A stretch of DNA of 64,000 bases from Bacteroidales bacterium (GTDB lineage: Bacteria; Bacteroidota; Bacteroidia; Bacteroidales; VadinHA17). The notes below the pieces were generated by a model. That model was given only the letters and a program-made list of their open reading frames with translations, searched no databases and had not been told where the DNA came from. The stretch is taken from positions 11,187-75,186 of the forward strand of contig DAINPM010000006.1 of assembly GCA_036743455.1 (NCBI GenBank), in the 5' to 3' direction. Made by a program: the position numbers and the translations under genes. Below, one piece after another: positions 605 through 55,012 of this stretch; position 1 is the stretch's first letter; each line of letters starts with the position of its first letter.

Positions 605-1642
605 ATGGGATGTGTCTGCTTTACATACTATTGTTTCCTGCTGTTATCATCAGGCAGATTACTTGTTGCTGGGGCTCAGGGAAATACTGATATTGACTTT
701 TCCGGATTTAATATCACTTTCCTGTTGGCGGGAATATTTATCATACTGGCAGTCATACTGGCTTTGGCGTATCTGACAAACAGACTGTTCGGGGTCAGAA
801 AGAAATTAAAAGAAAAGACCAAAGCTCTCGACATGGCTGAACACTTGATAAGCCACCTTGAATTGCGGGATAAAGATATGACTGATTCACTTATCTATGC
901 ACAGAGGATACAGGAAGCTCTACTGCCTTCAGAGGACTTTTTCCGTAATTATTTTCCCGATTCTTTTGTTTATTTCAAACCGAAGGATATTGTAAGCGGT
1001 GATTTTTACTGGGTAGGCGAGAAAGGCGATAAAATATTTGTGGCAGCAGCTGATTGTACGGGCCATGGCGTTCCGGGAGCCCTTATGTCGGTAATAGGAC
1101 TTGATATAATCACTAAGACAATTCTTGAAGCAAATATTGAAAATCCTTCCGCAGTACTGGCAGTGATGAATAAAGACCTTGAAAAGATGTTCAGCAGAGA
1201 GAAAAATATTGGGACAATAATCCGTGATGGAATGGATCTTGGTCTTTGTATCATTGACCGGAAGAGAAAAAAAATTGAATATGCCGGTGCTTTCTTTCCT
1301 CTGTATCTTGTTCGTGATAATACATTAACAGAGATTAAAGGAGATAAATTTATTATAGGAATGAATCCGAAAGGACTGGGATATACCACTCATGAGATTG
1401 ATATAAAGGAAGATGATATTATTTATATATTTTCTGATGGATATGTTGATCAGTTTGGAGGGACTGAAAATAAAAAATTCATGTACAGACGCTTCAGATA
1501 TCTTCTTTTGCAGATACACAGATTTTCTTTTAAAGACCAGAAGTCAATACTGGAAGAAAATATGAGATCGTGGATGATGGATAACAGCCAGGTTGATGAT
1601 ATTATGGTTATAGGTTTCCGGCCTTTGAGGGAGGGACATTAG
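605..1642 (+). CDS. Membrane-anchored PP2C/SpoIIE (RsbU-like) Ser/Thr phosphatase
   Basis: Hydrophobic N-terminal segments, then AQRIQEALLP, VSGDFYW, ADCTGHGVPGALMS, DGMD, FSDGYVDQFGG and QVDDIMVIG. Confidence 0.9.
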   Translation: MGCVCFTYYCFLLLSSGRLLVAGAQGNTDIDFSGFNITFLLAGIFIILAVILALAYLTNRLFGVRKKLKEKTKALDMAEHLISHLELRDKDMTDSLIYAQRIQEALLPSEDFFRNYFPDSFVYFKPKDIVSGDFYWVGEKGDKIFVAAADCTGHGVPGALMSVIGLDIITKTILEANIENPSAVLAVMNKDLEKMFSREKNIGTIIRDGMDLGLCIIDRKRKKIEYAGAFFPLYLVRDNTLTEIKGDKFIIGMNPKGLGYTTHEIDIKEDDIIYIFSDGYVDQFGGTENKKFMYRRFRYLLLQIHRFSFKDQKSILEENMRSWMMDNSQVDDIMVIGFRPLREGH

Positions 1643-2964
1643 ATATATTTCTTTATTTTTTCGATCAACGCTGAAGGTTGAAAAGGTTTGCTGATATAAT
1701 CATCAATACCGGCAGATATACATTTCTCCCTGTCTCCCAGCATTGCGTTTGCTGTAATTGCAATTATTGGAATATGTGTACTAGTGCTTGATTCAAGTGC
1801 TCTTATTTTTTCTGCAGCCAGAAGGCCGCTCATTACCGGCATCTGTATATCCATGAGGATAATGTCGAAACTGGATGTGCCAAACTTGTCAAGAGCCTCT
1901 TTCCCGTTTGAAGCAGTCTCAATACTGTGTACAAGCGGCTGAAGAGTCAGCAGTGTTATTTTCTGGTTTATCAGGTTGTCTTCAACAAGCAGAATTTTAA
2001 TATCTTTTAATTCCTTATGTACTCTCTCCTTTTGCATAAGTTCTCCGATTGTTGGAGAGACAGTATGTGTTTTTATATCATTTATAATATTGGTGAAAGG
2101 CAGTCTGAAATTCAGAACAGTGTAACTGACTCCAAACTCCTGATTATATGCTCCTTTGCTTCCTTTTATCATTCTTGCTGCCAGACTCCTGTTTATTTCC
2201 TTTTCATTAATAAGTACAATCACTTTATCTATCTCTATGCGAAACCCGATCAATATCTCATTTAGACTTTCCTTTTCATTTTGCAGACTGATAGTGACTT
2301 TGGTCCCTCTTTCCGAACTGTGGTTTTCAATAGTATTAAAGATATCCAAAAGAATCTGTTTGAGAATAATAGGATCGCCAAAACACTCACAGTCATTAAA
2401 TCCGGCATTGTTCAGATCAAACTCAATATTAGCCTTGTCTTTAAGATTATAAAGCTCAATAGTATTCTGGATAGTAGAAAGAATATTAAACCGAATATAT
2501 TTTCTTGGTTCCAGGGTTATATTATCAGCTGACTGCATAGTCAGTTCATTGACAGTGGTTACCATGTTGTTTGTTGATGCCATGAAAGTCTCAAGCAGCT
2601 CTTTCTGTTTTTTCTGGAGACCTGATTCCATAAGCATATCAGTTATTATCACCACATTATTCAAAGGTTCTCTTATCTTATGAGAAAAATCAGATATGAG
2701 ATTATCCATTTTTTCGTTTGAAGCCGAGATTTCCCTGAGAGAATTTCTTGCATTGCTGAGAAGATAAATAATTTTTTTCGTGAGTAATATACCAATAGCC
2801 GCTGTGATTATTAATATTACACCGGCAAAGAAAGGTGTATCAGCAATTATCAGTATTATACCTGTAATCAGACCGGTTAAGGCTGCATAAGACCACATGG
2901 TAATTCTTTTGAGTGCAGACCGGCCAGCTTCACCAATTATTGTTTTCCCGGGATCTTTAATCAT
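1639..2964 (-). CDS. Hybrid sensor/response regulator with HisKA, degenerate HATPase and C-terminal receiver domain
   Basis: Two transmembrane segments, H-box FSHKIREPLN, receiver ILLVEDNLINQ..ILMDIQMPVMSG..AITANA..ISKP. No DxGxG box is visible. Confidence 0.8.
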   Translation of the reverse strand: MIKDPGKTIIGEAGRSALKRITMWSYAALTGLITGIILIIADTPFFAGVILIITAAIGILLTKKIIYLLSNARNSLREISASNEKMDNLISDFSHKIREPLNNVVIITDMLMESGLQKKQKELLETFMASTNNMVTTVNELTMQSADNITLEPRKYIRFNILSTIQNTIELYNLKDKANIEFDLNNAGFNDCECFGDPIILKQILLDIFNTIENHSSERGTKVTISLQNEKESLNEILIGFRIEIDKVIVLINEKEINRSLAARMIKGSKGAYNQEFGVSYTVLNFRLPFTNIINDIKTHTVSPTIGELMQKERVHKELKDIKILLVEDNLINQKITLLTLQPLVHSIETASNGKEALDKFGTSSFDIILMDIQMPVMSGLLAAEKIRALESSTSTHIPIIAITANAMLGDREKCISAGIDDYISKPFQPSALIEKIKKYI

Positions 2965-39393: not shown

Positions 39394-40167
39394 ATGTCAT
39401 TAATAAAGGAAATTAATAAATCACAGCTTCCACGGCATATTGCAATAATCATGGATGGGAATGGCAGATGGGCTCTCAGACATGGTAAGGACAGGATATT
39501 CGGGCACCACCAGGGGGTGAAATCAGTAAGAGTGATAATTGAAACTGCAGCTGAATTTGGAATAAGCTACCTGACTCTTTATGCTTTTTCCACTGAAAAC
39601 TGGGAAAGACCTGATGAAGAAGTTGCAGCATTAATGGGACTAATGGTTCAGTCACTTAATGATGAAACCGATACCCTTCTGAAGAATAACATCAGGCTCT
39701 CAGCAATAGGAGATATTGACAGGCTTGATGAAGATGTAAAGAAAAGATTATCCGAGACTATCCAGGTAACATCGGTTTCAACAGGCCTTAATCTTGTTGT
39801 GGCTCTTAGCTACAGTTCACGCTGGGAAATAATAAAGGCCGTAAAACAAATAGCCGGTGAAGTGGCAAGCGGTAATCTGGCGGTAAACACAATTGATCAA
39901 TCCCTCTTTGATCATTACCTGTCAACAAAAGAGTTACCCGATCCTGATCTGTTGATAAGGACAAGTGGTGAATTGAGATTAAGTAATTTCCTTCTTTGGC
40001 AATTGGCTTACAGTGAGTTGTATTTTACAGAAATACTTTGGCCTGATTTTGGTAAGGAGGATTTTTATAAGGCAATTATTGAATATCAGAAAAGAGAAAG
40101 ACGGTTTGGCAAAACAAGCGAACAGATATCTGAGAAAAAGTGTAATGATGGAGAGAAATCATTTTAA
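39394..40167 (+). CDS. uppS: Undecaprenyl diphosphate synthase
   Basis: [21 protein letters not shown] and [15 protein letters not shown]. Confidence 0.97.
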
Positions 40168-42658
40168 AAAGATTATTGCGGGGTTGTTAATGATTGTGAC
40201 TTGTATTCCTCTGTTTTCTCAGGAGAAAGCAGAGATTTTAGATTATTCAAGATCAGATATATATGTTTTGGGAGGTATTACCATTTCAGGGATCAGATTC
40301 CTTGATCTTAACGCTCTGGTGGGCTTGTCAGGACTGAAAGAGGGACAGGAAATGAGAATACCCGGAGAAACTATTTCCAATGCCGCCAAGAAACTATGGA
40401 ATCAGGGTCTGTTTTCTGATGTCAGGATCACGATTGACAGCCTGAAAGCAGATACAGCATTCCTCAATATTTATCTCCAGGAAAGACCAAGATTGTCATC
40501 TATCAGTTTCACAGGACTTAAGACTACAGAAATAGATGATATTACCGATAAAATCAATATGCCTATAGGATCACAGATAACTTCATATATTCTTGAAAAT
40601 ACCAGAAAGATCATAATTGATCATTTTGTGGAAAAAGGGTTCCTTAATACAACAGTTGATTTTATTCAGAAAGATGATCCCGCACAGCCAAATAATATGA
40701 CCCTTACAGTAAATGTTGACAAGAAGGATAAAGTTAAGATAGAGGAGATAACCTTCAGGGGGAATGAATATTTTGATGAGAAGAAACTCCGGCGCCAGAT
40801 GAAAGATACGAAACAGAGGGATCTCAATATATTCAAACCATCAAAGTACATTGGGGAAAAATATGAAGAGGATAAGAAAAATCTTATCACTTTTTATAAT
40901 GATAACGGATTCAGGGACTTTGAGATCGTTTCCGATTCAATGTACTGGATATCCGAGGACCGGGTTGGTATTCAGATTACTGTTGATGAAGGCAATCAGT
41001 ATTTCCTCAGGGATGTTGAATGGGTGGGCAACAGTGTGTACAGGAAAGAGGATCTTGAAAGGGTTTTTAACATCACTAAGGGATCGGTTTATAACCAGAC
41101 ACTTATAAATGACAGGCTTACAGGAGCCAGTGGAGCAGAAGATGCTGTGAGTAATCTCTATCTCGACTATGGTTATCTGACCTCTCAGCTGACTCCCGTG
41201 GAGGCAAATATAGAAAACGATTCTATTGATCTTCAGATAAGAATATACGAAGGTGAACAGTCTTATATAAATGATATAATCATTACTGGTAATACAAGGA
41301 CGAATGAGCATGTGCCACGACGTGAGCTCTATACTCTTCCCGGTGATCTTTTCAGTAAGTCGGATATAATGCGATCTATCCGCCAGCTTGGTGTTCTGGG
41401 CCATTTCGATCCCGAGAAGATCAATCCCATCCCACAGTCCGACATAACTACAGGAACAGTGGATCTGCTTTACCAGCTTGAAGAAAAGGCTAATGATCAG
41501 TTTGAGATATCAGGAGGCTGGGGAGCCGGAATGTTGGTCGGGACTGTCGGTGTCAGATTCAATAATTTCGCTATGCGTAATTTCTTTGATCTGAAAGAAT
41601 GGAGGCCTTATCCTTCCGGAGACGGACAGTCTCTTAGTATAAGAGCACAATCGAACGGACGTTATTATCAGTCATATAACCTGTCATTCAGTGAACCATG
41701 GCTGGGAGGCAAGAAACCAAATTCATTTTCAGTATCGATGTACAGGTCGTTGATGAGTAACGGAGCAAAGAAAAGTTCTGACAGTTACCAGTCTATGGTC
41801 ATCAGCGGAGCTGCTTTGGGCCTGGGCAAAAGGCTGGAATGGCCCGACGATTACTTCTCCTTATACGGAGAATTGAATTATCAGCGCTACGATCTGAATG
41901 ATTATAACTACTATCAGTTCCTTTTTGAAAAAGGGCAGTCCAATCTGCTGAGCTTTACAGGAAGGATATCCAGGTTCTCTGTAGGACCTAACCTTATCTA
42001 TCCAAGAAGAGGATCATCCTTTACCTTATCCCTGCAGATAACACCTCCCTATACCGCCATTAGCGGAAAAAGGATGACTAACGTGTCTGATGAGATAAAA
42101 TATAAATGGATAGAATTTCATAAATGGGTCTTTAAATCGGAAAGTTATTTTCCTCTTGAACGCAACGAAAAGCTTATTTTAAGTGCACGCTTTGGATTCG
42201 GTTATCTGGGACATTACAACAAGGATATAGGACCTTCTCCCTTTGAGAATTTCTATATAGGAGGTGATGGTATGACCGGATATAGTTTTTACGGACGTGA
42301 GGTTATTGCCCTCAGAGGATATACTAACGGATCTCTTACTCCGGTAGATCCCGAATCAAACGCTCCTGCTGGTAATGTCTATTCAAAGATCACTTTTGAA
42401 CTCAGATACCCCGTGTCTCTTAATAATCAGGCAACAATATACGGTCTCGTATTTCTGGAAGCAGGAAGGGCATGGAAGGATATCAGGGATTATAATCCTT
42501 TCAGAATGAACAGGGCTGCCGGGGTAGGAATAAGAGCTAATCTGCCTATGTTCGGACTCCTTGGTGTAGACTGGGGTTATGGCTTTGATGATGTCCCCAC
42601 AAATAAGACCGATGCCAATAAAGGACAAATTCATTTTGTGATAGGTCAGCAGTTTTAA
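40145..42658 (+). CDS. bamA: Outer-membrane assembly factor BamA
   Basis: POTRA repeats, GNTRTNE..RREL, LRGY and C-terminal HFVIGQQF. Start moved to the ATG at 40145. Confidence 0.96.
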
Positions 42659-42680
42659 TAGTTAGTTAAATTTAGAAATT

Positions 42681-43196
42681 ATGAAAAAGTTAATAATAAT
42701 AACAGGAATGTTAATTCTGACAGCCGCTGTAGCTACAGCTCAGAAATATGCGTTCGTAGATACTGAATATATCAGAAGGAATATACCCGCTTTCGAAACA
42801 GCACAACAGCAACTCGATAAACTCTCAGAACAATGGGAAAAAGAGATTGCTGACGGTTATGCGGCTATTGAACAGATGTATAAATCGTACCAGAATGAAG
42901 CTCCTTTGCTTTCACAGGATATGAAAATCCAAAGAGAAGAAGCTATTATCAACAGGGAAAAAGAAATAAAAGAACTTCAAAACAGATATTTCGGCATGGA
43001 AGGAGAACTCTTTAAGAAAAGGGAAGAACTGGTTAAACCTCTCCAGGATGAAATACTTAAGGCAATAAAAGACATTGCCGTGGAAGGCAGTTATGCAGTT
43101 ATATTCGATTCTGCTTCAGGAGGTAACATACTCTTTGCCAATCCTAAATACGATATAAGTGACGAGGTTCTTGAAAGATTAGGTTATAATAATTAA
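42681..43196 (+). CDS. ompH: OmpH/Skp chaperone
   Basis: AQKYAFVDTEYI..LVKPLQDEI...YDISDEVL. Confidence 0.92.
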   Translation: MKKLIIITGMLILTAAVATAQKYAFVDTEYIRRNIPAFETAQQQLDKLSEQWEKEIADGYAAIEQMYKSYQNEAPLLSQDMKIQREEAIINREKEIKELQNRYFGMEGELFKKREELVKPLQDEILKAIKDIAVEGSYAVIFDSASGGNILFANPKYDISDEVLERLGYNN

Positions 43197-43201
43197 ATAA
43201 T

Positions 43202-43209
43202 TACATTTG
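43202..43209 (+). promoter_or_regulatory. Internal -7 element TACATTTG before the second ompH
   Basis: Exact match in a 36-nt intergenic gap. Confidence 0.45.
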
Positions 43210-43232
43210 CATAATTTAATATACAGAATACA

Positions 43233-43745
43233 ATGAAAAGGATAATAGGAATAGCTGCTCTGATCGTTTTCGGTGTTTGTACAGTCGGAGCGCAGACTTT
43301 AAAATTCGGACATGTCAATAGTGAAGAACTTATCAGGATAATGCCGGAATTTGATACAGCCAGTGTTCAGCTGGAAAGTTTACAGACAGAACTTATCAAT
43401 ACACTTGAACTGATGTCGGTAGAGCTTAATAATAAAAGTGAACAGTATAATAAGGAAAGTGCCAATTTGACTGCCATTGTCAGACAGACAAAGGAACAGG
43501 AACTAATGGATCTGAACAGAAGGATACAGGAATTTCAGACAAATGCCCAGCAACAATTGCAGGATAAACAGTTAGAGCTTTTCAATCCGATTTATACAAA
43601 GGTTGATAATATTATTAAAGAGATAGGTAAAGAAAACGGGTTTATTTACGTTTTCGACATATCAAAAGGGTCATTACTCTATTTTGATGAATCCAGGAGT
43701 ACAGATATTATGCCTCTTGCAAAAGCAAAACTTGGTATTAAGTAA
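43233..43745 (+). CDS. ompH: OmpH/Skp chaperone, second copy
   Basis: KFGHVNS.ELI..MPE and PIYTKV..GF.YVFD. Confidence 0.92.
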   Translation: MKRIIGIAALIVFGVCTVGAQTLKFGHVNSEELIRIMPEFDTASVQLESLQTELINTLELMSVELNNKSEQYNKESANLTAIVRQTKEQELMDLNRRIQEFQTNAQQQLQDKQLELFNPIYTKVDNIIKEIGKENGFIYVFDISKGSLLYFDESRSTDIMPLAKAKLGIK

Positions 43746-43765
43746 AATACGAAACATAACAGACC

Positions 43766-43799
43766 GACCATCTGTCTGCTGGCGGATGGTCATTTTTTT
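43766..43799 (+). terminator. Rho-independent terminator
   Basis: GACCATCTGTC-TGCT-GGCGGATGGTC stem (two G-U pairs) followed by ATTTTTTT. Confidence 0.7.
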
Positions 43800-43813
43800 A
43801 AATAATCGATGAA

Positions 43814-44623
43814 GTGAACGATCAGCCGGTTGGTATTTTTGATTCCGGTGTAGGCGGACTTACAGTAGCTCATGCAATAAAACAGCTTTTACCGGGAGAA
43901 AGCATCCTCTATTTTGGTGATACAGCTCACCTTCCTTATGGTGATAAATCGGCTGAATCAATAAAATCCTATTCCCGGCGTATAACAGAATTTCTTCTCA
44001 GCCATAATGCCAAAGTTGTTTTAGTGGCATGTAATTCAGCTTCAGCTTCTGCTTATGATACACTGAAGGAAGAATTTGGAGAAAAGGTTATCCTTATGGA
44101 TGTTATCGACCCTGTTGTAACTTATCTTACTGAAAAAAAATTCACAAAAGTTGGGATAATTGGGACAAAAAGAACCATAGAATCACAGACATACGATACA
44201 AAAATAGGTCTTACATCCCCTGGCACAAAAGTTGTTTCAATGGCTACTCCCCTTCTGGTACCAATGATAGAGGAAGGATTTATTTTTGATGATATCAGTA
44301 ATGCTATTCTCAGAGCTTACCTGTCAGATAATATTTTTCAGGGAATAGATGCACTCGTTCTGGGCTGTACTCATTACCCTATAATAAAAAACCAGATAAA
44401 CCGGATATTTAATTTCAGTATCGAAGTGATTGATTCAGCCAGGATAGTGTCAGTGATGCTTCGTGATATACTTGAAGAAAATAAGCTTCTCAATAATTCA
44501 GGAAAAGTACAGGACTTGTTTTTTATTTCAGAATATACTCCTTTTTTTGGCAAAATTGCCGGAATGTTTTTTGAAGGAGAGATAAATCTGTCAAGGGCAG
44601 ATATATGGAGTCACAAGGCCTGA
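43814..44623 (+). CDS. murI: Glutamate racemase
   Basis: FDSGVGGLTV, GDTAHLPYG, ACNSAS and LGCTHYP. Confidence 0.96.
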   Translation: MNDQPVGIFDSGVGGLTVAHAIKQLLPGESILYFGDTAHLPYGDKSAESIKSYSRRITEFLLSHNAKVVLVACNSASASAYDTLKEEFGEKVILMDVIDPVVTYLTEKKFTKVGIIGTKRTIESQTYDTKIGLTSPGTKVVSMATPLLVPMIEEGFIFDDISNAILRAYLSDNIFQGIDALVLGCTHYPIIKNQINRIFNFSIEVIDSARIVSVMLRDILEENKLLNNSGKVQDLFFISEYTPFFGKIAGMFFEGEINLSRADIWSHKA

Positions 44624-44799: not shown

Positions 44800-46644
44800 A
44801 TGACCAGAAATTCAAAGGTTATAAAGAGGGAAGAGGTCGTAATCCGTTTTTCAGGCGATTCCGGAGATGGGATGCAGTTGACAGGGACGCTTTTTTCTGA
44901 TACTGCAGCACTGACAGGTAACGATCTCGCAACATTTCCCGATTACCCGGCAGAGATAAGGGCTCCACAGGGGACTGTGGGCGGTGTGTCCGGTTTTCAG
45001 GTTCATCTTGGACATTCTGAAATACAAACACCCGGCGATTATGCCGATGTTCTGGTAGCCATGAACCCTGCAGCAATAAAGGCAAATGCCTGTTGGGTTA
45101 AACCCGGAGGGACAATCATCTATGATAAAGATAATTTTACTGAAAAGAATATAATAAAAGCCGGTTATCTGAAAGATCCTGTTGCCGAGGAAAAACTTGA
45201 GACCTATAACATTATTCCTGCTCCTATTTCTTCTATGGTCAGGGAAGCGCTTAAAAATTTTGGTCTTGATGCCAAATCTGTTCTCAGGACGAAGAATATG
45301 TTTGCTTTGGGAATGGTTTACTGGCTTTTTGACAGAAAGCTAAAGTATACAGAACAATATTTCGATCAGAAGTTTTCTGACAGGCCCGAGATATCGGAAG
45401 CCAATAAGGTGGCTCTCAGAAAGGGTTTTTACTATGCCGAGACAATACAGGCCCTCAATCCTGTCATCAGGATTGAGCCGGCAGCTATTGAGCCCGGTAC
45501 TTACCGTAATATTTGCGGCAATGTAGCCACTGCCTGGGGTTTACTTGCTGCTGCCGAAAAAGCCCGATTGAAATTATTCATTGGCTCTTATCCGATCACT
45601 CCTGCCACAGGTATCCTCGAGGAACTGGCAGCAAGAAAAGATCTGGGTGTTATAAGTATGCAGGCAGAAGATGAGATATCAGGTATATGTTCTGCTCTTG
45701 GAGCAAGTTTTGCCGGACGACTGGCTGTTACTTCCACATCGGGTCCGGGCATGGCTCTTAAATCTGAGGCAATTGGTCTGGCCGTTATGGCAGAATTACC
45801 TGTGGTTATTGTAGACGTTCAGAGGGGTGGCCCTTCAACAGGTCTTCCCACCAAAACAGAGCAGGCAGATCTCATGCAGGCACTCTACGGAAGACACGGA
45901 GAATGTCCATTAGTAGTAATCGCTGCCAGTTCATCAGGTGATTGTTTCCATTTTGCTTTTGAAGCAGCCAGAATAGCCCTGGAACATATGACACCAGTTA
46001 TTCTCCTTAGCGACAGCCTGCTTGCTAATGGCTCAGAACCCTGGAAAATACCAGCAATGAGCGAACTCCCTGAAATAAAGCCACCTTATGCAGATATGAA
46101 TAAGATACCCTTTCTGCCCTATGAACGCGATGACAAAACATTTGTCAGAAACTGGGCAATTCCCGGGACACCAGGACTGGAACACAGAATAGGAGGTTTG
46201 GAGAAAACAATAAAGGGGACAGTATCATATATCCCGGAAAATCACGAATATATGGTGAAAACAAGAGATGCTAAAATAGCTGCAGTAGCAAACTTTATTC
46301 CTGGTATTGAGGTTATCGGGAAATATACAGGGGACTTACTTATTACCGGATGGGGAAGTTCCGGGCCTTACCTCAGAACGGCAGCGAATGAGTTACAGTC
46401 TGAAGGATATGAAGTAAGCTTCGCCCAGTTTAACTATATTAATCCTCTTCCCAAAAATGTAAGTACCATATTCAGCCGGTTCAAAAAAATAGCTGTCGGG
46501 GAACTTAACCTCGGTCAGTTTGCAGATTATCTGAGAATAAAACATCCCGGATTTTCTTACAATAGTATCAATAAGGTTAAGGGGATGCCCTTTACTATTA
46601 AAGAAATAAAGGAAAGTTGTATTAAAATACTGGAGGCTAAATAG
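44800..46644 (+). CDS. korA: 2-oxoacid:ferredoxin oxidoreductase alpha subunit (fused gamma-alpha)
   Basis: FSGDSGDGMQLTG, YPAEIRAP, SYPITPA and QRGGPSTGLPTK. Confidence 0.93.
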   Translation: MTRNSKVIKREEVVIRFSGDSGDGMQLTGTLFSDTAALTGNDLATFPDYPAEIRAPQGTVGGVSGFQVHLGHSEIQTPGDYADVLVAMNPAAIKANACWVKPGGTIIYDKDNFTEKNIIKAGYLKDPVAEEKLETYNIIPAPISSMVREALKNFGLDAKSVLRTKNMFALGMVYWLFDRKLKYTEQYFDQKFSDRPEISEANKVALRKGFYYAETIQALNPVIRIEPAAIEPGTYRNICGNVATAWGLLAAAEKARLKLFIGSYPITPATGILEELAARKDLGVISMQAEDEISGICSALGASFAGRLAVTSTSGPGMALKSEAIGLAVMAELPVVIVDVQRGGPSTGLPTKTEQADLMQALYGRHGECPLVVIAASSSGDCFHFAFEAARIALEHMTPVILLSDSLLANGSEPWKIPAMSELPEIKPPYADMNKIPFLPYERDDKTFVRNWAIPGTPGLEHRIGGLEKTIKGTVSYIPENHEYMVKTRDAKIAAVANFIPGIEVIGKYTGDLLITGWGSSGPYLRTAANELQSEGYEVSFAQFNYINPLPKNVSTIFSRFKKIAVGELNLGQFADYLRIKHPGFSYNSINKVKGMPFTIKEIKESCIKILEAK

Positions 46645-46645
46645 T

Positions 46646-47668
46646 ATGGAAGAAAAGATATCCAATAATCATACTATGAAAGATTTTAAAAGTGACCAGG
46701 AGGTAAGATGGTGCCCGGGTTGCGGAAATCATGCAGTGCTGAATGCTGTCCAAAAAGCACTGGCTCAAATGAATATTTTCAGGGAGAATTATGTGTTTGT
46801 CTCAGGAATAGGTTGTTCGTCCAGGTTCCCTTATTATATTAATACCTACGGTTTTCATGGAATTCATGGCAGGGCCGCAGCTATAGCCACAGGAATAAAA
46901 ACAGCAAACCCGCAATTATCAGTGTGGACTATCACTGGAGACGGTGATGCTCTGGCTATAGGCGGGAATCATTTTATCCATGCTATACGCCGGAATGTAG
47001 ACATTAATATCATATTGTTCAACAACGAAATATACGGACTTACCAAAGGGCAGTATTCACCTACTTCCGTCAGAGGTCTCGTTACAAAAACATCTCCTTT
47101 TGGCACTGTTGAGGAACCTTTTTCAGTGGGAGATCTGGTGATAGGAGCCAGAGGTAAATTCTTTGCCCGTACCATCGATACCATGGTTACACTGTCAACT
47201 GACATTTATGTGGAAGCTGAGAGACACCGTGGTACGTCAGTGGTGGAAGTACTTCAAAACTGTGTGATTTTCAATGATGGTGTACATGATAATATTGCAG
47301 GAAAAGATGTCAGGGCTGACCGTACTATTGTACTGAAACATGGTAAACCGATGGTTTTCGGAAAGAACAACGACAAGGGTCTTATTCTCGACGGATTAAA
47401 AATAAAGGTTGTAAGACTGGGAGAAAACAATATAACAGAAAAAGACCTTCTTGTTCATGATGCCACGGAACCAAACCCCGGGATCCATTATATGCTGTCT
47501 AATATGAAATATCCCGATTATCCTGTGGCTCTTGGAGTTATAAGGTCGGTGGAAGGACGTACCTATGATGCTGATATAGAAAAACAAATCTCTGATATTC
47601 AGAACAAATCCAGAATAAAGTGTATGGATGATCTGTTAATGAGTGGTTCAACATGGAAAATAAAGTGA
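46646..47668 (+). CDS. korB: 2-oxoacid:ferredoxin oxidoreductase beta subunit
   Basis: WCPGCG, SGIGCSSR, GDGD...IGGNH and NNEIYGLTKGQ. Confidence 0.94.
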   Translation: MEEKISNNHTMKDFKSDQEVRWCPGCGNHAVLNAVQKALAQMNIFRENYVFVSGIGCSSRFPYYINTYGFHGIHGRAAAIATGIKTANPQLSVWTITGDGDALAIGGNHFIHAIRRNVDINIILFNNEIYGLTKGQYSPTSVRGLVTKTSPFGTVEEPFSVGDLVIGARGKFFARTIDTMVTLSTDIYVEAERHRGTSVVEVLQNCVIFNDGVHDNIAGKDVRADRTIVLKHGKPMVFGKNNDKGLILDGLKIKVVRLGENNITEKDLLVHDATEPNPGIHYMLSNMKYPDYPVALGVIRSVEGRTYDADIEKQISDIQNKSRIKCMDDLLMSGSTWKIK

Positions 47669-47700: not shown

Positions 47701-50700
47701 ATGGAAGAAAACGACCAGATAAGTCCCGAATATCACCGATTGATGCACGAGCAGCATGAACGTTTAAAAGAGCTGAGCTGTATCAATCAGACCACTTATA
47801 TATTAAAAGAAGGGAAGCCTCTGGAAGAAACCCTTCAGCAGATAGTGCTGCTTTTGCCAGCAGCCTGGCAATATCCCAAATATACTGTAGCCAGGATAGT
47901 ATATCTCGATAAAGCTTTTGAAACACCCGGTTTCCGTGAAACACGGTGGATGATGAGACAGGAATTCAGTACTATTGATAATGAAGACGGATGTATTGAA
48001 ATATGTTATACCCGTGAATTTAACAAAGAAGAAGAAGGTCCTTTTCTTAAGGAAGAGAGAGATCTTATCCAGAATATCGCAGGGCTTATCACCGGTTATA
48101 TAAACAGTGCAAAAGCCAGGGATATTATTCTGAGCAGACAGGTTTCCGTTGAAGAGGAGGAAGATTTGCGGGAAGTGTCAAGCAGAAAATTATTACAGAG
48201 ATTTCTTGAGCGTCATAATGCAGAAAGAGATGTTTTTCACGATCTGCAGCCCTTCAAGGTTAAGGAAATACTGTTGGTTGCAAACCTGTACGATGCTTAT
48301 TCCATTGAAGGTGAAGGCCGCTTTGCTGATCATATGCTGGGTGAGTATTACCAGCTGAGCCTTACATCTCTTCCAAGGGTGACAGGAGTGTCTAACGAGG
48401 AAGAAGCTTTTAACCGGTTGAAAGCCATGCATTATGACATGGTTATCATTATGGTGGGAGTACATAAGGAAGGGCCGGTTGAAATGTGTAAAAAGATAAA
48501 GGACAAATATCCTTACATGCCGGCTTTTATGCTGTTGAATAATCCTGCTCACGTTCCATGGATAAAGCAACAAAAAGAATCAGGGGTTCCAATAGATAAT
48601 TATTTTGTGTGGACAGGAGAATCAAAAGTTTTCTTTGCCATGGTCAATCTTCTCGAAGACAGAGTGAATATTGATAATGATACAAAAAAAGGTTTGATAG
48701 GAGTGATACTCCTTGTTGAAGATTCCCCCGAATATTATTCAAGTTATCTGCCCATGCTCTATACTCTTGTTATGGAGCAAACCAGAAATCTTATTGAAGA
48801 GGTGTCTGCTGATGAATTGTTTAAAGTACTGAAACTGAAGACGCGTCCGAAAATAATACTGGCTTCCAATTATGAGGATGCCATAACCGTACTTAATAAA
48901 TACGAAAATAATCTGCTGTGTGTGATTTCCGATATCCGTTTCCCAAGAAATGGGAAAATTGAAGAAACAGCAGGCTATGAACTCCTCAGGCATATTAAAG
49001 AGCTGATTCCTAATCTGCCTACAGTACTGCAATCCTCTGAACCTGAAAATGCAAAATATGCTTATTCGCTGAAATCAAATTTCATAAACAAGAATTCGGA
49101 GAGTCTGATGAAGGATTTGAAATCATTCATCAATTATTATCTTGGTTTTGGCCATTTTGTCTACCGTGATGACAAAGGACGTCAGATAGCTGTTGCCAAA
49201 TCAATGAAAGAGTTTGAGGCATACCTTGAAACAGTGCCCGAAGATTCTCTTGAATATCATGCCCTGAGAAATCATTTTTCCCTGTGGCTTATGGCCAGAG
49301 GGGAAGTCAAGATAGCCAGACAGATCAATCCCCTCAGAGTCTCGGAATTTAAAAATCTCAGCGAACTGAGAGAATATCTGCTGAATCTTATCCGACAGAG
49401 ACGACGTGAGATGAACAAAGGCCGGGTAATAAATTTTGAGGAATCAGCAATTATTGATGATACCAATGTGATAAGCCTTTCGAGTGGATCACTGGGAGGC
49501 AAAGGACGAGGTCTCGCCTTTATCAATACCCTGGTCAACAGCTTTGAGCTTGGTCGCCTGCTGCCCGGAATAAATATCAGAACTCCGGTTACTGCAATTA
49601 TCGGTACCGATGAATTCGATATGTTCATGGAACGTAATCATCTGTGGGATGTTATTAAAAAAGAAAAAGATTATACAATACTCCAGGATTATTTTCTTCA
49701 GGCAAGGCTTAGTTATACTCTCGAAAAAGAACTCAGGATATATCTTAAACAAATACATAAACCAATAGCTGTAAGGTCGTCAAGTCTGTTTGAAGATTCA
49801 ATGAATCAGCCTTTCTCGGGAGTTTTCGGGACCTACCTTCTGCCAAATAACCATCCGGATCCGGAGGTCAGGCTGCGACAGCTGTCAACAGCAGTAAAAC
49901 TTGTTTTTTCATCCATATATTCAAAGAGTTCAAGAACATTTTTTGAGGCAATTAATTATAAAATTGAACTTGAGAAAATGGCTGTCGTAATCCAGGAGGT
50001 TGTCGGGAACCGGTTTGGAGATTATTTCTATCCTCATATCAGTGGTACTGCCCAGTCACATAATTTTTATCCTGTATCGCACATGACTCCTGAAGATGGT
50101 ATAGCTGTAATGGCTGTGGGTCTGGGACATTATGTGGCAGAAGGGGAGAGGGCTTTCAGGTTTTCTCCTTCATATCCGAGGATGGATATAATATCACAGC
50201 AGGACATATATAAAAATTCACAGGTAAATTTTTATGCCGTTGACCTGAAAAATGAAGATCTGAATCTCCTGGACGGCGAAAAGGCAGGAATGGTTTCCCT
50301 TAATATAAGTGAAGCCGAGAAATATGGGACATTGAATCATGTAGCTTCAGTAATGGATATCGAAAACGACACCATTATACCAGGGCTTGACAGGGCTGGT
50401 CCCAGGGTGATCAATTTTGCGGACATCCTGAAATATGACTATATCCCCCTGTCATCCACATTGAAAACAGTGCTTGATGTAGTGGCTGAAGCTACAGCAA
50501 ACCCGTCAGAGATAGAATTTGCTGTTGATCTGACAAAAGATGATACAGGGAAAGCTACATTTTATCTTCTTCAGATTAAGCCTCTTGTTGGTAGCGGAGC
50601 AGGATACAGTATTGACATGAATAGTATCAGTGAAGACAAAATGATATTGCGGGCCAACAAAAGTATGGGTAACGGGAAAATAGATAATATTACGGATCTT

Positions 50701-51153
50701 ATATATGCAGATCCTGAAACATTTGACAATCTTTCTACTGCTGAAATGGCTGAGGAGATAGATAAACTGAATGATAAAATGCTCAGGGAAGACAGACATT
50801 ATGTACTGATAGGTCCGGGCAGATGGGGAACGAGGGATAAATTCCTGGGAATACCTGTTTCATGGCCGCAGATATCAAATGCAAAGGTGATTGTGGAAGT
50901 GGAGATACCCGGGTTTTTTCTGGATGCATCACTTGGTTCACACTTTTTCCATAATGTAACCTCAATGCAGGTTGGATATTTTACTATCGACCAGATGACT
51001 AACGGAGGTTTCATAAAATGGGATAAAATAAAGAAACAGAGAATTGTTGAAAAAGGACGCTTTGTAAGTCATATCCGCTTTGATAAACCACTGGATATCC
51101 GTATGGATGGTAAAAAGGGTATGGCAGTAATCTTAAATGAACAAAATAAATAA
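47701..51153 (+). CDS. GAF-like / receiver / PEP-synthase-type ATP-grasp / putative phospho-His domain protein, paralogue A
   Basis: LLVEDS..VISDI..LQSS..FINK receiver; GGKGRGL, AVRSSS..ED, IQEVVG and EIEFA..LQIKP ATP-grasp; C-terminal GPGRWG..LGSHFFHN. Confidence 0.85.
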   Translation: MEENDQISPEYHRLMHEQHERLKELSCINQTTYILKEGKPLEETLQQIVLLLPAAWQYPKYTVARIVYLDKAFETPGFRETRWMMRQEFSTIDNEDGCIEICYTREFNKEEEGPFLKEERDLIQNIAGLITGYINSAKARDIILSRQVSVEEEEDLREVSSRKLLQRFLERHNAERDVFHDLQPFKVKEILLVANLYDAYSIEGEGRFADHMLGEYYQLSLTSLPRVTGVSNEEEAFNRLKAMHYDMVIIMVGVHKEGPVEMCKKIKDKYPYMPAFMLLNNPAHVPWIKQQKESGVPIDNYFVWTGESKVFFAMVNLLEDRVNIDNDTKKGLIGVILLVEDSPEYYSSYLPMLYTLVMEQTRNLIEEVSADELFKVLKLKTRPKIILASNYEDAITVLNKYENNLLCVISDIRFPRNGKIEETAGYELLRHIKELIPNLPTVLQSSEPENAKYAYSLKSNFINKNSESLMKDLKSFINYYLGFGHFVYRDDKGRQIAVAKSMKEFEAYLETVPEDSLEYHALRNHFSLWLMARGEVKIARQINPLRVSEFKNLSELREYLLNLIRQRRREMNKGRVINFEESAIIDDTNVISLSSGSLGGKGRGLAFINTLVNSFELGRLLPGINIRTPVTAIIGTDEFDMFMERNHLWDVIKKEKDYTILQDYFLQARLSYTLEKELRIYLKQIHKPIAVRSSSLFEDSMNQPFSGVFGTYLLPNNHPDPEVRLRQLSTAVKLVFSSIYSKSSRTFFEAINYKIELEKMAVVIQEVVGNRFGDYFYPHISGTAQSHNFYPVSHMTPEDGIAVMAVGLGHYVAEGERAFRFSPSYPRMDIISQQDIYKNSQVNFYAVDLKNEDLNLLDGEKAGMVSLNISEAEKYGTLNHVASVMDIENDTIIPGLDRAGPRVINFADILKYDYIPLSSTLKTVLDVVAEATANPSEIEFAVDLTKDDTGKATFYLLQIKPLVGSGAGYSIDMNSISEDKMILRANKSMGNGKIDNITDLIYADPETFDNLSTAEMAEEIDKLNDKMLREDRHYVLIGPGRWGTRDKFLGIPVSWPQISNAKVIVEVEIPGFFLDASLGSHFFHNVTSMQVGYFTIDQMTNGGFIKWDKIKKQRIVEKGRFVSHIRFDKPLDIRMDGKKGMAVILNEQNK

Positions 51154-54134
51154 TGCCTTACGATCTGCTGGAATTGGAAGGAATATCTGATCTTCAGAAA
51201 TATGATTTTGCGGATACATCTTTTAATCTGCTGATGCAGAAGAGAATCCGCCGTGTACTTATAATCTGCAGTAATTACGATTATTTTATGCTTGAAGAAG
51301 ACGGCCGGATTGATGAACAGATTTTTAATGAATATGTTTCACTAAATCTGCGTTATCCTCCATATTTTGTTCAGACAGATAATGAAACAGATGCTTTCGG
51401 TGCACTGAGGGAAGATAATATAGATCTTGTTATTATAATGCTGAGTCACAAGGGAAGGGATATTTTTGCTCTCGCTAAAAGGATAAAGGAAAAATATCCA
51501 AGAATTCCCATTGTTGTCCTTACATATTTTACCCGTGAAGTCTCATTGCGTCTTGAAGGTGAAGACATGAGTGCTATTGATTATGTCTTCTGCTGGCTTG
51601 GAGAGGCATCCCTTATACTTGCAATAATCAAACTTATTGAAGATAATATGAATGCCGAACACGATATTGACACAGGTGTTCAGGCAATTATTCTGGTCGA
51701 AAATTCAATAAGATATATTTCATCATATCTCCCTGAGATATACCGGATAGTGTTGATGCAGTCACTTGACTTTCAGCGTGAAGCGCTAAATGAGCAGCAG
51801 CGTATGCTGAAGATGAGAGGGCGTCCCAAGATCCTTCTTGCAAAAAACTTCAATGATGCTGTCGATTTGTACAGGAAATATAAATACAATGTACTGGGCG
51901 TTATCTCCGATATAAGTTACAAAAGAGACGATGTACAGGATGAGAATGCAGGATTTGAGCTATGCGAAATGATAATGGCGGAAGATGACCAGGTCCCGAT
52001 CCTGCTCCAGTCGTCAAATCTTAAACATAAAAAGAGAGCCGAGGAAGCAGGTGCGGCATTCATACATAAATATTCCAGATCCTTATCCCTGGAACTGCGT
52101 AATTTTATTATCCAGTATCTTGCTTTTGGGCCTTTTGTATTCAGAAATCCTGAAACAATGGAACCCATCACCATGGCTACCGACCTGCAAAGTCTTCAAC
52201 AGAAGCTTCTTACAATACCTGACAACTGTCTTGAGTTCCATGCTTCACACAATCATTTTTCCAAATGGCTTAATGCCCGTGCTCTTTTCCCTGTCGCCCA
52301 GATGTTCAAGTATATAAGAAAAGAAGATTTTGCATCGCTGGATGAAATGCGGCGTTTCCTTTATGTTGCCATTTCAAGTTACAGGCTGGGTAAAGGCAGA
52401 GGAATAATAGCCAAATTCGACAAAACCAGCTTTGACGAGTATCAGATATTTTCACGTATTGGAGAAGGATCAATCGGAGGAAAGGCAAGAGGTCTTGCAT
52501 TTATTAACAGGATTATTAAGAGCCAGAGTCTGTTTAATAAGTTCCCCGGCGTACTTATAACTATTCCCCGTACTGTTGTACTGGGGACAGATATCTTTGA
52601 TGAATTCATGGAGAACAATAATCTCTACCATGTAGCATCTTCCGATCTGTCCGATGAGGAAATATTACAGAAATTCCTTGCAGCGGAACTTCCGGGAAGA
52701 GTGTATCAGGATTTTTATGCATATTTTGCCGTATCCAAAAATCATCCCATTGCAGTGAGATCTTCCAGTAAGCTTGAAGATTCACATTATCAACCTTTTG
52801 CAGGAGTGTATTCGACATATATGATACCCCGGCTGGAAGATAACAAGCTTATGGTTAAAGTGCTGTCGGATGCAATAAAGGAAGTATATGCCTCAGTTTA
52901 CTATAAGGCAAGTAAGGCATATATGACAGCTACTTCCAATGTCCTTGACGAAGAGAAAATGGGTATTATTCTTCAGGAGGTATGCGGAAACAGACATGGC
53001 AATATATTTTATCCGACATTCTCAGGAGTTGCACGCTCAATAAACTATTATCCCATAGGTTCGGAAAAAGCTGAAGATGGTATAGCCAATGTGGCTTTTG
53101 GACTTGGGAAACTGATCGTTGAAGGTGGGATGTCATTGAGATTCTGTCCGAAAATTCCAAAAAAAATACTGCAGTTATCTTCTCCCGAAACAGCATTACG
53201 CGATACTCAGAAAGTGTTCCGTGCACTCGATCTGAATATTGATAGTTTTGTTCCATCAACAGACGATGGAATAAATATTCCGGTTATAGATATAAAGGAT
53301 GCCGGTAATGATAAAGCCATGAAGCTTCTTGCCTCCACTTATGACAGGACAAACAATATACTGCGTGACGGAACAGGACAATCAGGGCAGAGAGTGATCT
53401 CTTTTGCAGGAGTGCTGCAGCATAAAGCTTTCCCTCTTTCGGAGATACTCGTTACTCTGCTTGAACTGGGGCAGAAAGAGATGAATAATCCCATAGAGAT
53501 TGAATTTGCAGTTAATCTGGAGACAGCTCCGGGCACCCCGAAAGTATTTAATTTCCTGCAGATAAGACCTGTTGTACAAGCAGATATGATTCGCAGTGTT
53601 GATATCGACAAGGTCAGATCAGAAGATTGTATCCTTCTTTCCGAATCAGCCCTTGGTAACGGAGCCTTTAAAGGGATAAACGATGTGGTTTATGTAAAAC
53701 CGGATTCTTTTAATCCGGCAGATACGAAGAATATTGCTGTCATTATTGACAACCTTAATACCTCTTTTGTCAATAATGGTATTGGTTATGTGCTTATAGG
53801 TCCTGGCAGATGGGGATCTGCTGACCCCTGGCTTGGGATCCCTGTCAAGTGGGTGCATATATCTGCTGCCCGTATCATCATTGAGTCAGGACTGGCTAAT
53901 TACCGTATTGACCCCAGTCAGGGCACTCATTTTTTCCAGAATCTTACATCCTTCGGTGTAGGTTATATGACTTTGAATCCCTATATAAATGATGGTTTCT
54001 ATGATGTAAGTTATCTCGATAATATGCCTGCGGTATATGAAGATACATTCATCCGGCATGTGAGATTTAATAAACCCCTTGAAATCATTATAGATGGGAG
54101 AAAACATAAAGGGGTTATAATAAAACCATCTTAG
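51153..54134 (+). CDS. Receiver / PEP-synthase-type ATP-grasp / putative phospho-His domain protein, paralogue B
   Basis: Collinear with paralogue A: VISDI, GGKARGL, AVRSSSKLED, EIEFA..LQIRP and GPGRWG..SQGTHFFQN. Confidence 0.85.
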   Translation: MPYDLLELEGISDLQKYDFADTSFNLLMQKRIRRVLIICSNYDYFMLEEDGRIDEQIFNEYVSLNLRYPPYFVQTDNETDAFGALREDNIDLVIIMLSHKGRDIFALAKRIKEKYPRIPIVVLTYFTREVSLRLEGEDMSAIDYVFCWLGEASLILAIIKLIEDNMNAEHDIDTGVQAIILVENSIRYISSYLPEIYRIVLMQSLDFQREALNEQQRMLKMRGRPKILLAKNFNDAVDLYRKYKYNVLGVISDISYKRDDVQDENAGFELCEMIMAEDDQVPILLQSSNLKHKKRAEEAGAAFIHKYSRSLSLELRNFIIQYLAFGPFVFRNPETMEPITMATDLQSLQQKLLTIPDNCLEFHASHNHFSKWLNARALFPVAQMFKYIRKEDFASLDEMRRFLYVAISSYRLGKGRGIIAKFDKTSFDEYQIFSRIGEGSIGGKARGLAFINRIIKSQSLFNKFPGVLITIPRTVVLGTDIFDEFMENNNLYHVASSDLSDEEILQKFLAAELPGRVYQDFYAYFAVSKNHPIAVRSSSKLEDSHYQPFAGVYSTYMIPRLEDNKLMVKVLSDAIKEVYASVYYKASKAYMTATSNVLDEEKMGIILQEVCGNRHGNIFYPTFSGVARSINYYPIGSEKAEDGIANVAFGLGKLIVEGGMSLRFCPKIPKKILQLSSPETALRDTQKVFRALDLNIDSFVPSTDDGINIPVIDIKDAGNDKAMKLLASTYDRTNNILRDGTGQSGQRVISFAGVLQHKAFPLSEILVTLLELGQKEMNNPIEIEFAVNLETAPGTPKVFNFLQIRPVVQADMIRSVDIDKVRSEDCILLSESALGNGAFKGINDVVYVKPDSFNPADTKNIAVIIDNLNTSFVNNGIGYVLIGPGRWGSADPWLGIPVKWVHISAARIIIESGLANYRIDPSQGTHFFQNLTSFGVGYMTLNPYINDGFYDVSYLDNMPAVYEDTFIRHVRFNKPLEIIIDGRKHKGVIIKPS

Positions 54135-55012
54135 ACAGGGACACTTCCTACGGAAACATCACTGTTTATTTTTCTTATCAGTCCCTGTAACACTGAGCCG
54201 GGTCCTGCTTCTGTGAAAGATGTTGCTCCGTCTCTGATCATATTGATCACACTCTGTGTCCATAGAACCGGAGAAGTAAGCTGTGTTCGCAGATTCTGTT
54301 TAATAAGCTCAGGATCGTCTGAGGGCCTGGCTGTAGCATTTTGATATACAGGGCAAAAAGGCTTTCTGAAAGTTGTGGAACTGATGGCAGTATCCAGTTC
54401 TTTTCCGGCCGGTTCCATCAGAGGTGAGTGAAAGGCGCCTCCCACAGATAGTTTGATGATTCTTTTAATTCCCTGGGCTTTGAGGCTCTCCATAGCCATA
54501 TCAATGCCCTTCAGTGTGCCGGATATTACTATCTGTCCGGGGCTGTTGTAATTAGCAGGTATAACAAGTTCATTTATCTCAGAACAGATTTTTTCAACGA
54601 GATTATCATCAGCACCAATCACTGCTGCCATAGCTGAAGGATTCTCTTCACATGCTTTTTGCATGGCTACTGCTCTTTTTGAAACAAGGATAAGCCCTTC
54701 TTCAAAAAGAAGTGTTTCGTTGGCTACCAGTGCAGAGAACTCACCCAGAGAATGTCCGGCAACCATATCCGGTCGGCTGTCAGTGACAGCAAGAGAAGCA
54801 AGGATAGTTGAATACAAAAAAACTGCAGGCTGCGTTACTTTTGTCTGCTTAAGCTCTTCTTCCGTCCCTGAAAACATAATATCCGTTATTCCAAATCCCA
54901 GGATGTCATCCGCCTTTTTGAACATAGCCCTGGCAGCAGGATATTTATCGTAAAGATCTTTTCCCATACCCGGATACTGAGCTCCCTGTCCGGGGAAAAC
55001 ATAAGCCTTCAT
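54131..55012 (-). CDS. fabD: Malonyl-CoA:ACP transacylase
   Basis: FPGQGAQ, TQPA, GHSLGE and GAFHS. Confidence 0.97.
   Translation of the reverse strand: MKAYVFPGQGAQYPGMGKDLYDKYPAARAMFKKADDILGFGITDIMFSGTEEELKQTKVTQPAVFLYSTILASLAVTDSRPDMVAGHSLGEFSALVANETLLFEEGLILVSKRAVAMQKACEENPSAMAAVIGADDNLVEKICSEINELVIPANYNSPGQIVISGTLKGIDMAMESLKAQGIKRIIKLSVGGAFHSPLMEPAGKELDTAISSTTFRKPFCPVYQNATARPSDDPELIKQNLRTQLTSPVLWTQSVINMIRDGATSFTEAGPGSVLQGLIRKINSDVSVGSVPV

Follow-up and report, generated by a model that had tools for sequence, protein, structure and literature searches.

What would two adjacent genes do whose products join receivers of the two-component type to an ATP-grasp domain of the phosphoenolpyruvate (PEP) synthase type? 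Such a pair, here termed genes A and B, lies in a 64,000-nucleotide stretch of a Bacteroidales bacterium of the VadinHA17 lineage (assembly GCA_036743455.1, contig DAINPM010000006.1, positions 11,187 to 75,186 of the forward strand), referred to below as the window. An earlier note, made from the sequence alone, had described the products as candidate dikinase-type phosphorelay proteins ending in a cryptic phospho-histidine domain. We consider it possible, with a probability of roughly 0.45, that A and B form a receiver-gated, dikinase-like regulatory phosphotransferase pair tied to the glutamate/2-oxoglutarate node, a reading that draws on analogy with known enzymes of the pyruvate phosphate dikinase (PPDK) type.

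The two collinear genes with a TAATG overlap at 51153 were recognized correctly in the earlier note: the stop codon of A and the start codon of B share one base, and the products are paralogues with 36% identity across 983 aligned residues (BLASTP), A having approximately 165 additional N-terminal residues relative to B. The residues D411 and H1081 of A and D253 and H926 of B were also quoted correctly, as were their codons (Table 1). As long, strongly conserved open reading frames (ORFs) with thousands of homologues, the two genes raise no issue of chance. Gene B represents the widespread form of the family. Its close relatives number more than 8,000; the top 120 belong to Bacteroidales/Bacteroidia and share 78-100% identity. 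The relatives currently carry names such as 'PEP/pyruvate-binding domain-containing protein', 'phosphoenolpyruvate synthase', 'response regulator', and 'CheY-like chemotaxis protein'. Conservation along the whole protein was assessed by aligning 126 diverse members over their full length, 113 of them B-type and 13 A-type.

The PPDK_N family (PF01326) was detected by Pfam in both A (E=6e-31) and B (E=5e-35), and the ATP-grasp residues K444, R446, R536, E542, D543, Q608, E782, E784, Q803, and R805 are invariant across the B-type proteins. A structural model of B residues 425-993, covering the ATP-grasp and the C-terminal domain (C-domain) at a predicted local distance difference test (pLDDT) score of 80, gave as its best Foldseek match the Listeria rifampin phosphotransferase (RPH) RPH-Lm (E=1e-11, ~410 columns), with further matches to HpeI (9GOJ, 8e-10) and to PPDKs (~5e-7). 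This fold match and the invariant catalytic residues make an ATP-using, PPDK-type nucleotide domain near-certain, and the intact ATP-grasp read from the sequence earlier is upheld. No match in A or B was found by Pfam to the swivel domain PF00391 (E<=1) or to the PEP/pyruvate TIM barrel PF02896, and the protein ends 67 aa past the candidate histidine, in agreement with the claim that they are not PEP synthases. The NCBIfam models of PEP synthase (PEPS) and PPDK scored 12-53 bits against cut-offs of 598-1063; these matches, as well as those to PigC/RedH and rifampin phosphotransferase (RIF_Ptrans_rph, 18.8 bits against a cut-off of 999), were far below the cut-offs and covered the ATP-grasp only. 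HisKA, HATPase_c, and HPt had no Pfam match in either protein.

Exhaustive searching with the C-terminal 179 residues of B revealed 1,695 clusters of the C-domain at 50% identity. Apart from fragments, the domain always follows this ATP-grasp. Among the best 150 representatives taken together with A and B, the histidine H926 of B (H1081 of A), which the earlier note had singled out, is invariant (155/155); it is equally invariant in the full-length alignment (126/126), where no other histidine of the protein reaches a conservation of >=95%. It forms part of the motif GPGRWG[ST].D..LGIPV.W..IS.A..I.E........PSQG[TS]HFF[QH]N, and the invariant residues of the domain are G885, R886, W887, G888, D891, G895, E911, S922, G924, H926, F927, F928, and N930.

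The proposal that this histidine sits in a cryptic swivel domain fared differently, even though the E. coli PpsA swivel motif had been quoted correctly in its support. None of 120 C-domain fragments carried a precomputed Pfam domain, whether PF00391 or another. A 37-sequence C-domain profile found no PPDK, PEPS, enzyme I (EI), or RPH chain among PDB sequences at E<=10, whereas a control swivel profile made of only two sequences, E. coli K-12 PpsA and PtsI, retrieved PEPS (4e-45), EI (4e-43), RPH (4e-14), the pyruvate kinase C-domain (2e-14), and PPDK (2e-6). The AlphaFold2 model of the C-domain, built on a 122-sequence alignment (pLDDT 92.5; predicted TM-score, pTM, 0.90), had no Foldseek match at E<=1e-3 among 350,542 PDB chains (best E=0.01, TM<=0.28); no dikinase (PPDK, PEPS), EI, or RPH chain was among its top 50 matches, and a search of the viral structure library BFVD was negative. 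Finally, the C-domain was compared by hhalign with three successively broader swivel profiles; with those of 122 and 127 sequences of the PEP-utilising mobile domain it reached probabilities of 0.6% and 0.9%, against 99.5% (E=9.5e-23) for a single RPH swivel sequence aligned with the same profile. With all of these comparisons negative and the controls positive, we rejected the assignment of the C-domain to PF00391: the swivel fold, on which the earlier note had staked its reading, was not detected by Foldseek, profile, or profile-profile comparison. On present evidence, the C-domain appears to be an unannotated domain family with no detectable swivel membership and without structural relatives.

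The swivel-like feature that is present is the invariant S-Q-G-[TS]-H926, with a glycine loop before the histidine and, in the C-domain model, a helix that begins at it. The QGTH loop has a pLDDT below 50 in the model of B 425-993, and the histidine loop is of low confidence in both models, which would fit a mobile loop. The order of elements (hairpins, strand, loop, strand, Gly-x-His at the helix start, strand, and terminal hairpins) is loosely swivel-like, and Foldseek alignments of the two-domain B model with PPDK run over 660-700 columns, beyond the nucleotide domain; neither carries statistical weight. Several parallels were discarded. Those drawn by eye with the swivel domain (the GNG hairpin, the YVLIG strand, DPW, IIIE, the G-T-H helix, and the IDG..GVI hairpin) are unsupported, all tests being negative, and likenesses to longin, thioredoxin, and chitinase folds in Foldseek, together with a weak sequence match to the VAMP7 longin domain, had chance-level scores. 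Separately, hhalign recurrently paired GPGRWG[ST]..D..LGIPV (53808-53830 in B, 50815-50840 in A) with the swivel sequence GGRT[CS]HAAI.ARELGIPA. This register would place the conserved Ser/Thr889, not H926, at the phospho-histidine position; the alignment of GPGRWGS...LGIPV with GGRTCH...LGIPA, which sets S889 against the histidine, was rejected at a probability below 1%.

In each protein the earlier note had seen a receiver-like repeat followed by a receiver. The latter holds, with its full acceptor pocket, and the former is an Asp-less pseudo-receiver. Response_reg (PF00072) scored 36.9 bits in B, above the cut-off of 30.2, and 26.2 bits in A, below it. The second receiver keeps the full catalytic set E183, D184, D253, S287, and K306 in the 126 homologues; with the acidic pair, acceptor Asp, Ser, and Lys present, it has the make-up of a response-regulator receiver with a putative phospho-acceptor. 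Position 184 is Asp in 101 of the 113 B-type proteins and Asn in seven, as in B of the window, and all A-type members have Asp at the equivalent position. In the first domain, the acceptor position is occupied by Met in 94 of the 126 homologues and by Asp in none, and the Lys position by C, S, or V; residues 54-148 of B align with solved receivers, as expected of an Asp-less receiver (ALR). The linker that follows had been called DUF5752-like (PF19027), a description that is marginal for A, where the match at threshold spans profile positions 20-108 of 208, and weaker for B, whose score is below the cut-off (Table 1). No paper mentioning DUF5752 was found.

The N-terminal domain of ~165 aa in A, left out of the earlier note, recurs in A orthologues, inside three fusion proteins, and in regulators of the Crp/cyclic-nucleotide (cNMP) type. 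A profile of this family matched the GAF domain of Aquifex Nlh2 in the PDB (4g3v, E=0.007) weakly and collinearly, and Pfam matched GAF in 2 of 15 family members (E~0.01) and not in A itself; the domain is probably a GAF-like sensor. Proteins of ~375 aa that combine it with a cNMP-binding domain and a Crp-type helix-turn-helix are encoded in three of the loci described below (L007:8535-9662, L008:8538-9662, and L025:2045-3166, all on the minus strand), where their genes directly adjoin, and are convergent with, single B-type genes. This placement suggests a functional connection between the sensor signal and the B-type enzyme also in loci that lack A.

The full layout of pseudo-receiver, receiver, linker, ATP-grasp, and C-domain was observed in 34 representatives, and several proteins of ~550-580 aa start directly at the ATP-grasp. 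Since such receiver-less cores exist, the protein's own receiver would be neither the ancestral nor, probably, the obligatory phosphate target of the core. Three proteins from independent clusters (P0140, P0148, and P0155; 1523-1654 aa) consist of a receiver-less ATP-grasp and C-domain, a sensor, and a second, much more divergent ATP-grasp and C-domain with the sequence GRWGSRGD...SFGTHFFQD; the second module suggests that 'PEP/pyruvate-binding' proteins with a C-domain form a broader superfamily that reaches beyond Bacteroidota. They were rejected as 'Rosetta stone' fusions of A with B, the A and B cores being equally near the first module (~406 bits) and equally far from the second (~145 bits). 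A hydrophobic residue beside the histidine is common to A and the second module, which is convergent at best.

A scan of reference genomes provided 79 loci for the analysis of distribution and gene neighbourhood. Most belong to Bacteroidota (Bacteroides intestinalis, B. timonensis, B. bouchesdurhonensis, Gillisia limnaea, Lutibacter, Polaribacter, Prevotella, Parabacteroides, and Alistipes), and the others to one Chlorobiota metagenome-assembled genome (MAG) and a few MAGs classified in other phyla. The pair of A and B was found in ~15 of the 79 loci, the rest having a single B-type gene; pairing is thus restricted to certain lineages and not intrinsic to the family. Paired genes are usually -4 to +29 nt apart, which fits co-transcription. 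The A-type proteins depart from the otherwise invariant B-type sequence at two active-site positions, with Lys for Arg805 of the LQ.RP motif in 13/13 and Leu for Gln923 beside the histidine in 10/13, and these changes suggest a specialised or regulatory role for A.

Glutamate dehydrogenase (GDH; PF00208 and PF02812) was the commonest neighbour family, located within 8 kb in 28 of the 79 loci and as the immediate neighbour in 22. The arrangements of GDH with a B-type gene span Flavobacteriia and Bacteroidia: the GDH gene is tandem downstream in 17 cases, and divergent upstream in Bacteroides, Phocaeicola, and Parabacteroides. In four loci of Lutibacter, Polaribacter, and Flavobacteriaceae (L023, L031, L038, and L058), the B-type gene has a GDH paralogue on either side (447 and 445 aa), and in L026 a GDH gene stands between two B-type genes. 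The next families, fabD, oxidoreductase subunits, and folE, occur in 10-11 loci each and reflect close-relative synteny. In the window, gene A is preceded at a distance of 32 nt, without a terminator-like site in the gap, by genes on its own strand for the alpha and beta subunits of a KorAB-like oxidoreductase (TIGR03710, 627 bits); such genes upstream are conserved in 11 related loci in addition to the window, and the order oxidoreductase-A-B-GDH was found in L009 and L029. Five loci, including L036:1251-4487 (plus strand), have near the B-type gene a large oxidoreductase of several clusters with 2Fe-2S, Pyr_redox_2 flavoprotein (glutamate-synthase-small-chain type), and molybdopterin oxidoreductase domains, another neighbour from redox or nitrogen metabolism.

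A cognate histidine kinase was also sought: none was found in the window, and hybrid kinases lie within a few kb in 9 of the 79 loci at variable positions. Besides A and B, the sole two-component-like gene detected in the window is a 441-aa ORF at 1639-2964 (minus strand), 45 kb away, residues 28-142 and 322-438 of which match parts of a hybrid histidine kinase, namely the region upstream of the kinase core and the C-terminal receiver-like region.

According to the mechanism that we consider best, A and B would be orphan response regulators with an enzymatic output, in which the receiver (D411 in A, D253 in B), placed after the pseudo-receiver, gates a core of ATP-grasp and ~180-aa C-domain; in A, the preceding GAF-like ligand sensor would provide a second input. 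The ATP-grasp would phosphorylate H926/H1081 on the mobile loop of the C-domain, as expected from every characterised PPDK_N enzyme. Once charged, the protein would either pass the phosphate to a target beyond the core or bind this target in a phosphorylation-dependent manner. Going by gene neighbourhood, the target would belong to the glutamate/2-oxoglutarate node, as GDH or, in the present organism, the 2-oxoacid:ferredoxin oxidoreductase. The sensor-bearing A would be a duplicated, co-transcribed partner of B in this lineage.

The mode of action would resemble that of the PPDK-derived autokinase VadK (Rv1127c) of M. tuberculosis, the best functional analogue, which autophosphorylates on His422 with Mg-ATP and binds methylcitrate synthase and dehydratase to tune flux (PMC13400623). 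Like A and B, VadK has a PPDK_N ATP-grasp followed by a histidine-bearing domain and no PEP/pyruvate barrel; it is described as a PPDK truncated to these two parts, the histidine domain overlaying on solved PPDK structures (PMC13400623), in contrast to the C-domain of A and B, which matches no swivel domain. VadK also has neither receiver nor sensor, and its partners are methylcitrate-cycle enzymes rather than GDH. RPH-Lm (5HV1, 5HV3, and 5FBS), the closest structural match of the ATP-grasp half, is a dikinase with a C-terminal phospho-histidine and no pyruvate barrel, but differs in its large rifampin-binding domain, its canonical PF00391 swivel, and its lack of receivers. PEP synthase and PPDK share with A and B the Lys, Arg, Glu, and Gln catalytic residues of the ATP-grasp and the position of the histidine domain directly after it, and are set apart by PF00391, PF02896, and a central domain to which the C-domain has no sequence or profile similarity. 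In dikinases of the HpeHI/phenylphosphate-synthase type, whose ATP-grasp subunit HpeI was among the top structural matches, the ATP-grasp and histidine domains are separate partners, a precedent for phosphorylation in trans between A and B; these split enzymes have no receivers. Their phosphate goes to aromatic small molecules by way of a canonical swivel/substrate subunit. As for the other half of the architecture, an N-terminal receiver with a full pocket and a C-terminal enzyme are also combined in CheB, PleD, RpfG, and PorX.

The combination of a receiver with PPDK was known beforehand: Galperin's census (PMC5847659) has it among the response-regulator architectures as 'Bacteroides-like', and Asp-less receivers were found to be enriched with PPDK effector domains (PMC4395418). 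These papers list the architecture, with no function, target, C-domain description, or GDH linkage in what was found of them. The points that are new here are the C-domain, the linkage to GDH, the specialisation of A and B, the recurring sensor domain, the existence of receiver-less cores, and the limited occurrence of the pair. No literature connecting gdhA, Bacteroides, and this protein was found. By its title, a 1996 study of Baggio and Morrison reportedly concerned trans-acting genes downstream of gdhA that affect GDH activity in B. thetaiotaomicron, which we regard as a lead and not as evidence.

Several observations weigh against the regulatory phosphotransferase reading. The missing relation to the known phospho-histidine swivel domain leaves conservation and analogy as the support for a phospho-carrier role of H926, and the invariant R886, D891, E911, S922, and N930 would fit a site of catalysis or ligand binding as well. 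The Asn184 of B (codon at 51702-51704) occupies the second acidic, metal-binding position of the receiver, and the B receiver may for this reason be phosphorylated less readily than that of A in this organism. In the 64-kb window, neither a GDH gene nor a histidine kinase-like ORF was found, and the substrate of the upstream oxidoreductase can be assigned to subfamily level only. Adjacency to GDH is compatible with a regulatory link, a metabolic link, or mere co-expression. Our literature search found no functional or experimental study of the family.

The same invariant polar residues, together with the Gly-rich GPGRWG[ST] loop, exceed the needs of a simple carrier and would suit a different role, in which the C-domain binds or converts a substrate and the enzyme phosphorylates or ligates a small molecule that may be akin to glutamate or 2-oxoglutarate; H926 would then serve as a catalytic base or ligand. 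The dissimilarity to swivel domains and the metabolic gene neighbourhood agree with such an enzyme. We nevertheless consider it unlikely, as all characterised PPDK_N-family enzymes use a phospho-histidine intermediate, the sole invariant histidine is placed as in PPDK and PEPS in a domain directly after the ATP-grasp, and 179 aa are few for a full substrate site.

Closer to the earlier proposal, the ATP-grasp could charge H926/H1081 and the phosphate move on to the receiver Asp of the proteins themselves (D253/D411), either in cis or from one paralogue to the other, as two-component-style signalling without HisKA/HATPase. Receivers can accept phosphate from phospho-imidazole donors, and an invariant histidine and a complete receiver pocket do stand in one polypeptide, the two paralogues are probably co-transcribed, and no histidine kinase is present in the window or consistently adjacent in the 79 loci. 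However, the first module of the three fusions and the other receiver-less cores indicate that the protein's own Asp is not an ancestral or obligatory acceptor, and an N-terminal receiver with a C-terminal enzyme is the standard response-regulator layout; both make such a relay less likely as the purpose of the family. Bacteroidota encode many orphan and hybrid kinases, and most genomes hold a single B-type gene. We therefore regard this relay as improbable, and would give similarly long odds to the stronger claim of a new histidine autokinase core, with a carrier fold unrelated to HisKA and swivel domains, that feeds the receiver Asp or covalently regulates GDH.

The A-type substitutions at two otherwise invariant active-site positions would also be expected of nucleotide sensors or scaffolds that bind ATP/AMP and perhaps a ligand and regulate their partners by binding, with no phosphotransfer; the action proposed for VadK likewise includes competitive binding to a partner enzyme. 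The invariance of the B-type catalytic residues and histidine across phyla argues for retained chemistry, and we consider a purely binding role improbable. Source names such as 'phosphoenolpyruvate synthase' and the weak NCBIfam matches to the PEPS N-terminal region would make A and B plain PEP synthases or pyruvate phosphate dikinases; this identification is refuted by their domain content and has practically no chance of being true.

Table 1. Coordinates of genes A and B, their parts, and the upstream oxidoreductase genes in the window
Feature	Coordinates	Strand	Details
Gene A	47701..51153	+	1150 aa; sensor, pseudo-receiver, receiver, DUF5752-like linker, PPDK_N ATP-grasp, C-domain
A residues 1-165, N-terminal sensor domain, probably GAF-like	47701..48195	+	own sequence without Pfam match
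A residues ~180-326, Asp-less pseudo-receiver	48238..48678	+	
A residues ~329-476, receiver	48685..49128	+	E340/D341, D411 (codon 48931), S445, K464
A residues ~477-590, DUF5752-like linker	49129..49470	+	Pfam 499-573, 23.9 bits vs cut-off 23
A residues 597-963, PPDK_N ATP-grasp	49489..50589	+	K601, R692, E937, E939, Q958; K960 = Arg in B-type
A residues 970-1150, C-domain	50608..51150	+	GPGRWGT; ASLGSH1081FFHN (His codon 50941)
Gene B	51153..54134	+	993 aa; pseudo-receiver, receiver, DUF5752-like linker, PPDK_N ATP-grasp, C-domain
B residues ~25-170, Asp-less pseudo-receiver	51225..51662	+	M96 = acceptor position, C147 = Lys position
B residues ~172-318, receiver	51666..52106	+	E183/N184, D253 (codon 51909), S287, K306
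B residues ~319-432, linker, weakly DUF5752-like	52107..52448	+	14.8 bits, below cut-off; H363 ~92% conserved
B residues 440-815, PPDK_N ATP-grasp	52470..53597	+	K444, R446, R536, E542, D543, Q608, E782, E784, Q803, R805
B residues 815-993, C-domain, unannotated family	53595..54131	+	H926 codon 53928
2-oxoacid:acceptor oxidoreductase alpha and beta subunits (KorAB-like)	44800..47668	+	upstream of gene A

Downstream, the stop codon of B overlaps by 4 nt (54131-54134) the stop of a convergent fabD-like gene (54131..55012, minus strand), with no terminator-like hairpin between the two genes. Further upstream, a housekeeping cluster at 40013-44623 comprises BamA (POTRA and Omp85), two OmpH/Skp-like genes, and a glutamate racemase-like gene (Asp_Glu_race), the last preceded by a hairpin (43766-43791) that strongly resembles a terminator.

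The family is large and is present in gut Bacteroides, Prevotella, Parabacteroides, and Alistipes as well as in marine Flavobacteriia. Defining the C-domain family would correct thousands of annotations, and if its histidine is phosphorylated, the carrier domains of dikinases would be joined by a new one. The control of nitrogen assimilation at GDH is poorly understood in Bacteroidota, and the family, encoded next to gdh in many lineages, is a concrete candidate regulator. If covalent regulation of GDH proves true, Bacteroidota would possess a hitherto undescribed post-translational switch where carbon and nitrogen metabolism meet.

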